A DNA stretch of 63,856 nt, the filler included, from Craspedostauros australis (Eukaryota): the NCBI GenBank assembly GCA_030167865.1. It is 13 parts of 13 records of this genome, joined end to end, with 100 filler letters (N's around TTAATTAATTAA, not from the genome) between each part and the next. Parts side by side here need not be neighbours in the genome. Positions count along the whole stretch, not along the records: positions 1,902 to 4,258 come from JALAGF010000532.1; 12 more parts are not named here. One strand, written 5' to 3'. Made by a program: the position numbers and the translations under genes. Below, piece after piece: positions 1,902 to 4,099 of the stretch (its first letter is position 1; the number at the start of each line of letters is the position of its first letter). The notes beneath the pieces were generated by a model. It had not been told where the DNA came from. It did no database searches and worked only from the letters and a program-made list of their open reading frames with translations.

Positions 1902-4099
1902 AGAATGGACCCCACATGCCGAAGCTGATCAAAATACAGCTGCGGAACGCCATGCTGCGTGAGAGAGTTGCGAATGTCATCAAAAGCAAACACAGCATCG
2001 CATGTGTCCTGACCCTTCTGGCGGGCATCACGTACGGCCTGCACGACATCCTGCACAGAGTGAATCTCATGTGCGTCAATGGCAAGCAGATACGACCCTT
2101 TGAGCCGAGACCGCCACCTTGGGATGCGCGCCGAAACCGAGCCGGGCTTGCATGTCTTGAGCTGTAACCTGCCGCGCATCTCATCACGTTGAAACTCCAG
2201 ACCTGCAGTGACGTCGTCGCCGGCAAGAACGATGTGCTGATGAAACGCTCGCTCGTACGGATTGCCCGTCAGGTGAATGATGTCGGCACTCTCGACTCCA
2301 TCGGTAGAGCAGGCTGCCGCCGCCGCATGCAGAGCATCGTCATCATAAGTGACAGGATAGGCGCACTCGACCGGAAGACTCATGGCACCTGGCTTGGCTT
2401 TCGCAGACTCCGAATGTTGGTCATCGGCGCCGCCATGATCCAGCTGGAACCCGAGATCAAACAGAAGCTGAGGCCCCGGCGGACGTTCGTGAGCGGAGAA
2501 GTGCGCTTCATCAAAGATGAGATTGCCTGCCGACTTAATACGTCCTGAATCCAAGTCGTAGTAATCATGGATCGAGGGAGTCGCAGTATGGCCGACAAAG
2601 ATGCCATCGTATGTGTGGACGTCCAGTTTTGCGGCTGGATACCCTGGCTTGCGTACAATCACTCTGGAACCGAACACCCGCAGGTGTCGAAGATCGGGTT
2701 GGACACCGTGTTGGAGCTGGTAGGGAGTAGTGTCGATGCTTGAATGCCACAACCGATTCTTGACGTACACCGCATGAGCAAGGGCACGCGCCCAGAACTT
2801 GGGATGTAACCCCGAAGCATACAGGAGCGACCGTGTCATGACACCGAACGTCCGATTGAGCCGTTCGACCTTGCCGTTCATCCATGAACACCCGGCCCCG
2901 GTGGGCTCAAGAGTGTATCCGGCCGACTGAACCACGGTTTGGAAAGCACCAGACCGCGCGAGTTCGCCGCCAGAGTCCACTCTCACCGCCTTGCAACCGT
3001 CTTTGCATCCAAATTCCCGAAGTAGGTTGGCAAAGATGGTGACAGGCGGAGACCTGGTCCTGGTAGGAAACACCCAGGTGTACCTGGTGTAGGCATCAGT
3101 GACAAGGAGGTACGAAGTGAACCCTTCAATGGACTGCACCACCCGACGCGTCTTGGTGGAATTGCGGGACGAGTCCCTGCCATAGTGCTGGTCCGACGAC
3201 CGCATGAACCCGTAGTCAGCATGGAAACGAGCACCAGCAACGGGTACCGGATCGGAATCCGTATGCCCTCGAGCGGCCTTGATCCGTCGGGCTTGGTCGC
3301 ACACGGAACAGTGTCGCAACGGATGCGCACCCTTGGCAAGACCACTGGGAACACCCGAGCAGTGCGCCGGCAGCTGCTGTAGTTGATGCATGCCAGCATG
3401 CCCGAGCCTCATGTGCCAAAGCTCCGCCTGCAGTGCTGATGAAGCACTCTGCACAGCGAACGCCGCCGGCTGCACACCACACCCTGCTGCGAAGTAGTAG
3501 AGGCCGTTGTGTCGCCGCATGGGTGCGCTCACTGAACCGGTTGGGCCTTGAAAGGTGAGGATCGCACCGCTGGGGCTATCGTCCAGGACGTATCGATGAA
3601 ATGGATTGTCCCCTTGCCGCACAATGGCTTGCGGAGAAATCAACGTCGCAGTGAGCTCTGGACAATACAGCGTGACGGCACGAATGTGACTGCCATCGGA
3701 ACCGGGGATTGCCAAGACGCCAACGCCAGGGCACATCATGCACGCAGCGCTCGCGTTGGCGGCCGCCAAGGGCACCGGATTATTGTAGGACCTGTACGCC
3801 TGGAGGATGGAGCGGTCGGGAGTGGCGCTGACGTTGGCACCGGGATCGCACTGCCCGATTCCATCGCCGGGGTCCCACGCGCGCACGTTGCCATCAACGA
3901 CAGCAGCTGCACGCACCAGACACACCGGCGGAAGCCCAACACACACCATCTTGCAGGGTAATGCGTCGGGCGATGCAGGTAGAGCAAGCGAGGATGCCTC
4001 GTCGTGATGACGACCTGCAAGCACCCCGCTACCACGCGTGAGAGGACCGTGCCGTTCATCAGAGGTTGCACCTAGCTCTGACCGGCAGACCAAAAATCC
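1902..4099 (-). mobile_element. Ty1/copia pol fragment (protease, HHCC/rve integrase, PDZ-like domain), truncated before RT
   Basis: CDPGANV protease-like motif; LWHMRLGH...CSVC zinc finger; VRVDSGGEL and NGKVERLNRT integrase core; HLRVFGS...KLD..TYDGIFVG. Confidence 0.92.
4050..4099 (-). promoter_or_regulatory. Putative programmed -1 ribosomal frameshift signal
   Basis: G GAU UUU heptamer (4099-4093), 5-nt spacer, then stem-loop UGCCG-G-UCAGAG...CUCUGA-UGAA-CGGCA. Confidence 0.75.

Follow-up and report, generated by a model that had tools for sequence, protein, structure and literature searches.

We examined a window of 63,856 nt from Craspedostauros australis (GenBank assembly GCA_030167865.1), the window being the whole stretch of DNA analysed. 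On its minus strand, in the contig JALAGF010000532.1, lies part of a copia-type retrotransposon in which the end of the gag frame overlaps the beginning of pol. The window strings short contigs together into a pseudo-scaffold, with 12 pairs of 44-N runs and 12 nt between the members of each pair. Linkers stand, for example, at 4259-4358 and 1802-1901, and the one whose sequence was read has TTAATTAATTAA between its N44 runs, which stops all six frames; open reading frames (ORFs) and repeats that touch linkers are therefore cut by the assembly and not by biology. The copia-type element is confined to a single 2357-bp contig, 1902-4258, and is cut inside gag and inside pol. Neither blastn nor tblastn found a second copy of it within the window. 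The features of its gag/pol junction are listed here, where A3 is the alignment of this copy with the four -1-frame relatives described below.

4072..4257, minus strand: gag C-terminal tail, 61 codons plus TAG (4074-4072), by translation, starting at the contig edge at 4257
1902..4120, minus strand: pol frame, 739 codons, by translation, opening after TGA 4123-4121 and open to the contig end
4072..4120, minus strand: gag/pol overlap, 49 nt, from the pol opening after TGA 4123-4121 to the close of gag at 4072
4093..4099, minus strand: slippery heptamer G_GAU_UUU, in gag-frame phase G GAU UUU, inside the overlap
4087..4092, minus strand: 6-nt spacer from the heptamer to the conserved stem (A3: length 6 in 5/5, sequence variable)
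4051..4086, minus strand: bulged stem-loop (minimum-energy fold, pair counts and RNAalifold)
4086-4083 with 4054-4051, minus strand: lower stem, 4 bp (fold and alignment)
4082-4076 with 4064-4058, minus strand: upper stem, 7 bp, including an invariant G-U pair (fold and alignment)
4057-4055, minus strand: GAA bulge on the 3' side, invariant in 5/5 (A3)
4075-4065, minus strand: 11-nt loop containing the gag TAG (fold)

Read on the minus strand, the gag frame ends ...CAG GAT TTT TGG TCT GCC GGT CAG AGC TAG, and pol, lying in frame -1 with respect to it, reads GGA TTT TTG GTC; apart from this junction, both frames are open to the contig ends. These two frames, the heptamer and the arms UGCCG/CGGCA and UCAGAG/CUCUGA with the gag stop in the loop had been described in an earlier account of the locus (the sequence-only reading), and all were seen here, the frames overlapping at 4120-4072 and the heptamer lying in the gag frame at 4099-4093. 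The minimum-energy fold of the region is the same hairpin, at -17.1 kcal/mol. Two details of that account need amendment. The stem-loop does lie downstream of the heptamer, though not at the 5 nt given: the conserved spacer is 6 nt, and the extra U-A pair that would shorten it to 5 nt is possible in three of the five aligned sequences and impossible in the other two. The statement that no ATG lies near the start of pol holds except for a single pol-frame ATG, 50 codons past the shift site and ahead of the protease motif. An Rfam search with the heptamer, spacer and hairpin, which we refer to together as the cassette, returned no family, the sole match being at chance level (E = 2.7). The stability of the hairpin is at chance level, as detailed below, and the frame break falls at a T5 run, in which a single added T would join gag and pol in one frame; therefore this copy alone is not decisive.

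Comparative evidence came from a pattern-plus-tblastn scan of metagenome contigs, which yielded 24 loci, of which 14 extend far enough upstream of the protease to include the gag/pol junction. Of these junction loci, 4/14 (L001, L003, L010 and L011) have a -1 pol frame, at 36-43% pol identity, and the ORF upstream of pol carries a CCHC knuckle in L001, L003 and L011. Each of the four has a shift-prone heptamer in the gag frame within the overlap, the overlaps being 34, 61, 346 and 16 nt long, respectively. The heptamer is GGAUUUU in L001, L003 and L010, and in L011 it is AAAUUUU (A_AAU_UUU), a canonical X_XXY_YYZ site. Because the base following it varies among the four relatives (A, U, C or C), the layout is independent of the length of the T run. 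The sequence-only reading had held that other copies with a fused gag-pol frame would mark the T5 run as an indel or an error; what the -1-frame relatives present, four of four, is a heptamer inside an overlap.

The 6-nt spacer is followed by the same bulged hairpin in all five sequences, that is, in this copy and the four relatives. Every cell of the alignment that should pair does so (53/53), and 5 of the 11 pairs show a compensatory change, among them a G-C to C-G exchange at the first pair and U-A to A-U, G-C to U-A and A-U to U-A exchanges in the upper stem. None of 500 shuffles matched the observed percentage of paired cells or the covariation score, and when the 3' partners were slid by 1-3 columns as a control, only 16-55% were paired. 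RNAalifold independently predicted an identical hairpin. Programmed -1 frameshifting, as proposed in the sequence-only reading, is thus supported by a heptamer and a hairpin that are kept in 4/4 of the -1-frame relatives, and the covariation check suggested there has turned out in its favour, the hairpin being maintained through compensatory changes.

The pattern of conservation points to the RNA as the level of constraint. Within both arms, pol codons do not vary at their third positions (A3 columns 18, 21, 24, 45, 48 and 51), the roughly 90 pol codons ahead of the protease motif, among which the arms lie, encode residues that are otherwise unconserved, and in L001 an amino acid encoded by an arm is altered with the base pair retained; we argue on these grounds that the RNA is what is constrained. 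Predicted hairpin energies ranged from -11.8 to -17.1 kcal/mol across the five sequences. A covariance model built from A3 scored its five training sequences at 59-66 bits, a match by construction, and other sequences at no more than 8.8 bits in 152 kb. In L010 (L010:165-200) the hairpin loop contains UCCCCAG, and CUGGGGA stands just 3' of the stem, so that a pseudoknot of 7 bp could form there. No equivalent of this loop and downstream complement was seen by eye in the other four members, and we do not claim a pseudoknot.

Searches of other collections returned no further member. In the viral contig collection, the protein-pattern scan found no relative and the cassette DNA pattern had 0 matches. 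A loosened form of the DNA pattern gave a single match in the bacterial and archaeal genome collection (L025:44-101), which we took to be chance because it lies inside long ORFs on a contig labelled as a bacterial bin, reads TGATTTT instead of GGATTTT and has no retroelement context.

We then considered the identity of the two products. The pol frame encodes the following landmarks.

3853-3833, minus strand: protease-like motif QCDPGAN, in the pol frame
about 3505-2498, minus strand: integrase region, in the pol frame, downstream of the protease motif

Pfam matches to the pol product were SH3_retrovirus (5e-12) and gag_pre-integrs (3.6e-7), both above cut-off, with rve and Pol_BBD below it. 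All 739 pol residues align with pol ORFs of 1300-1390 aa at 40-43% identity, and in those ORFs PF07727, the copia-type reverse transcriptase (RT), follows the integrase. The order in this copy is protease motif and then integrase, RT and RNase H being absent as the contig ends first. Judged by this domain order, with integrase upstream of an RT that is seen in the relatives, the pol product appears to be of the Ty1/copia type; the protease motif, the integrase and the homologs that continue into PF07727 agree with the copia assignment made in the sequence-only reading. The 61-residue gag tail aligns to the C-termini of the gag ORFs of L001, L003 and L011, each of which has one knuckle, and it is therefore a true gag end. 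Pfam gave nothing significant for the gag ORFs of the relatives, and no gag family was matched.

The best pol homolog of near-full length, P0183 (44% identity, 1245 aa), comes from a collection of marine eukaryote transcriptomes, and at least one relative is therefore transcribed. The called ORF of P0183 begins at a Met within the protease motif.

The gag ends of more distant relatives were surveyed at the protein level. A gag profile search of 1.84 billion cluster representatives gave 293 at E <= 0.001, of which 152 were examined; 64 of the 152 reach the last 25 positions of the profile and were counted as C-terminally complete. Among these 64, D-F or N-F occurs in the last 10 residues of 40, and in 25 of the 40 exactly one residue follows the F. 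Three further gag homologs terminate in D-F plus one residue. Some tails match the gag-frame coding of the conserved 5' stem arm, with xxAG[QHY] in five and xSPG in two. The tail is acidic in 6 of the 40, which may be another class. A G-ending codon is expected before the D or N because G_GAU requires it, and in the other 34 tails a residue lacking such a codon never stands there (0/34, versus 32% in the preceding 33 residues). One representative, P0031, is the gag of L003 itself. As far as protein sequences can indicate, the gag-tail data fit a cassette that has spread over many diverged clusters.

In the remaining 10 of the 14 junction loci (L004, L006, L008, L009, L012, L013, L015, L018, L023 and L024), gag and pol share one frame and are separated by a single stop. 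This stop is UGA in all eight loci whose codon was determined. In seven loci UGA-CGG is followed by another stem-loop, in which 94 of 98 cells are paired and 5 of 14 pairs are compensatory (e.g., L006:3281-3360). An integrase tree, from which L003, L010, L011 and L023 were omitted for short coverage, placed the two frameshift rows (this copy and L001) and the eight UGA rows on opposite sides of a branch with support of 92/87. The loci with an in-frame stop appear to form a sister group to the frameshifting elements, one of readthrough type.

The neighbouring contig, 1-1801 on the minus strand, holds part of a different copia-like element. Its gag ORF (1801..913) has two CCHC knuckles and closes with TAG at 912-910, and directly past this stop a pol frame with a D-S-G protease motif resumes in the same frame. 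The TAG could be a candidate for readthrough or a single stop acquired through decay.

Taken with its relatives, the cassette is very probably a -1 ribosomal frameshift signal for the gag-pol of this Ty1/copia-type long terminal repeat (LTR) retrotransposon. Under such a mechanism, the majority of ribosomes would end gag translation on reaching the TAG of the loop. Some would stall on the hairpin 6 nt downstream of the heptamer, when the P site holds tRNA-Asp on GAU and the A site holds tRNA-Phe on UUU; these ribosomes would slip by -1 to GGA and UUU and then read the pol frame to give Gag-Pol. The predicted junction is ...DQDF followed by LVCRSE..., and the expected outcome is a low ratio of Gag-Pol to Gag out of one mRNA. 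The sequences show the frame layout, the heptamer and the hairpin, and how these are kept and covary in relatives, whereas a shift at this site, its frequency and the function of the GAA bulge are inferred.

Several observations weigh against this interpretation. Forty of 200 dinucleotide shuffles fold as well as the hairpin of this copy (z -0.77), its z value in a 140 nt context is +0.12, and over the five sequences z against mononucleotide shuffles runs from -0.7 to -3.3. Re-pairing of tRNA-Asp on GGA in the P site would be imperfect, with perfect re-pairing in the A site. At the DNA level the cassette is seen in five sequences only, and the structure tested was derived from these same sequences, which inflates the pair counts somewhat. 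The gag-tail evidence is at protein level only, with codons unseen, and some of the representatives are fragments with near-identical tails (e.g., P0074 and P0032). Where gag stops is not conserved, as the gag frame of L010 extends for 346 nt. The element is truncated at both contig ends, so that the copy here has no LTRs and ends before the RT. Finally, the pol-frame AUG that precedes the protease in this copy would allow independent initiation.

This last point bears on whether pol is expressed differently, for example through internal initiation, termination-reinitiation, a bypass or splicing of the RNA, with the hairpin serving in packaging, dimerisation or ribosome entry. We consider this improbable. 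A pol-frame AUG between the frame opening and the protease motif is also found in L001, L003 and L010, and the stability of the hairpin is modest; an alternative of this kind was reportedly proposed by Gao et al. in 2003 for a plant copia group in which gag ends with a conserved stem-loop. However, L011 has no AUG ahead of the protease motif, and the called pol ORFs of several relatives have their first Met within the motif. Another route would also leave unexplained why a phased heptamer stands 6 nt ahead of the hairpin inside the overlap in 5/5 sequences, why GG changed jointly to AA in L011 with the slippery pattern retained, and why gag ends in D/N-F in 40/64 complete representatives.

A -1 frameshift signal is likewise favoured over two readings in which the frame break has no translational meaning or arises before translation. 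The break falls at a T5 run, in an assembly of short contigs joined by linkers, and could reflect a T6 miscalled as T5 or a random indel in a dead copy. On the sequence evidence, homopolymer error or random decay is very unlikely, because the same layout recurs in independent contigs with a conserved heptamer and a covarying hairpin: four independent metagenome relatives share the -1 layout at the same place, two of them with T4 followed by A or C. Moreover, the gag ORFs of further relatives stop directly after D-F, the pol ORFs of relatives occur without gag (the six closest start 11-134 residues ahead of the protease motif), and both frames of this copy are otherwise open. Less probable still is a shift at the level of nucleic acid, in which RNA polymerase or reverse transcriptase would slip on the U/T run to give transcripts with one extra U. 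The homopolymer run does adjoin a structured region, and slippage can be stimulated by structures that the template RNA forms ahead of reverse transcriptases, according to the available text of PMC5737552. However, what is conserved is a heptamer in triplet phase, the GA or AA that precedes the U run included, at a ribosome-type spacing from the hairpin. The U run itself is merely 4-5 long, and known transcriptional slippage sites are longer than this.

Elsewhere in the window, on the minus strand at 4359-4510 and 4682-4810, two small contigs end in tandem pairs of a repeat unit (about 53 nt; C-rich, then ...CATTTCATGGGACTTGTGCC...), four copies in all, adjoining N gaps. There is also a (TG)n microsatellite at about 4530-4560. 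The region 22000-53000 contains long intron-free host ORFs that encode PPR repeats, an AAA ATPase, DUF4336, CRAL/TRIO, a CN hydrolase and a 3'-5' exonuclease. The nearest Atlas clusters of the DUF4336 gene belong mostly to Bacillariophyta, which hints at a diatom host without proving it. An ORF of 1508 codons (40770-45296, minus strand) had no Pfam match.

We found no description in the literature of such a cassette in copia-type elements, where an earlier mention of -1 layouts is possible. To our knowledge, no -1 signal has been characterised in diatoms, although no search was aimed at this point. The -1 mechanism and the heptamer are themselves known; undescribed, as far as we found, is this cassette in the copia superfamily and in the host group, probably diatoms.

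The closest parallels to the cassette are found in plant RNA viruses. The available text of PMC5009743 describes G_GA-type heptamers in some umbraviruses and dianthoviruses, and reports that pea enation mosaic virus (PEMV) shifts at G_GAU_UUU, where a stop codon lying 3 nt downstream is important for the shift; this agrees with the sequence-only reading, which had given G_GAU_UUU as functional in such viruses. On this description, the heptamer of PEMV RNA 2 (PEMV 2) is identical to that of our copy, and the position of its stop is echoed by the single codon between heptamer and stop in 2/5 DNA members and 25/40 D/N-F tails. In barley yellow dwarf luteovirus (BYDV), the stem-loop begins 6 nt downstream according to the same text, and its 3'-side bulge pairs with a distant element (PMC5009743). 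The cassette shares the 6-nt spacing and the 3'-side bulge; the viral bulge, however, is about 6 nt long and has its pairing partner kilobases downstream, whereas that of the cassette has 3 nt (GAA). In the umbraviruses and dianthoviruses (including red clover necrotic mosaic virus) and the luteovirus, moreover, the signals serve replicase genes, in contrast to gag-pol here. The likeness is most likely convergent, with no sequence homology or Rfam match.

A wider proposal is possible but rather doubtful. A large protist copia lineage, probably of diatoms, might carry a retrotransposon counterpart of the luteovirus/tombusvirid module, consisting of G_GAU_UUU, a gag stop that usually lies one codon downstream and would aid the shift as in PEMV 2, and a GAA bulge that would dock a distant RNA or a host factor to tune Gag:Gag-Pol. 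Recoding in this lineage would have been swapped between -1 shifting and UGA-CGG readthrough, with a hairpin downstream in both. Were there such a lineage-wide module with swapped recoding modes, it would offer a natural system for studying how stimulators switch recoding types.

Among retroelements, -1 layouts are common in animals: a 2003 survey, as summarised in the available text of PMC5009743, found pol in the -1 frame in 28 of 51 animal retroelements. Retroviruses and many animal LTR retrotransposons have the same purpose and the same layout as our element: pol lies in -1 and overlaps gag briefly, and a heptamer is accompanied by a 3' structure. Compared with the retroviral signals, the cassette stands in Ty1/copia gene order and its heptamer is not a classical X_XXY_YYZ. 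The yeast element Ty1 belongs to the same superfamily, has the same gene order and also makes Gag-Pol by recoding. Its shift, however, is a +1 event on CUU_AGG_C that is driven by a rare tRNA and needs no 3' structure, and is therefore opposite to a -1 shift in direction and mechanism.

Among Ty1/copia elements, according to the available text of PMC5580714, Ty1 uses +1 shifting, Tca2 has a stop codon, those of plants have a single ORF, and copia and EVD rely on splicing, in line with the range given by the sequence-only reading. Beside this picture, as that source draws it, a covariation-backed -1 signal in a copia lineage widens the repertoire of single ORF, splicing, +1 or stop. The lineage is large, with 293 gag cluster representatives at E <= 0.001, and the cassette is short, at about 50 nt. 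The gag and pol of these elements are at present annotated as two distinct ORFs without names, and a gag end in D-F, followed by a hairpin, would provide a simple rule for recognising them. The CoDi elements, which are Ty1/copia-like and occur in diatoms (Maumus et al. 2009, PMC2806351), probably share the host group of our element; the available text of that paper describes no slippery site or RNA structure for them. The readthrough of Moloney murine leukaemia virus and of Candida albicans Tca2 resembles the arrangement in the ten relatives with an in-frame stop and differs from the -1 layout of this copy, and the frameshift group, set beside its apparent sister group with UGA-CGG and a hairpin, affords a natural comparison of two recoding solutions.

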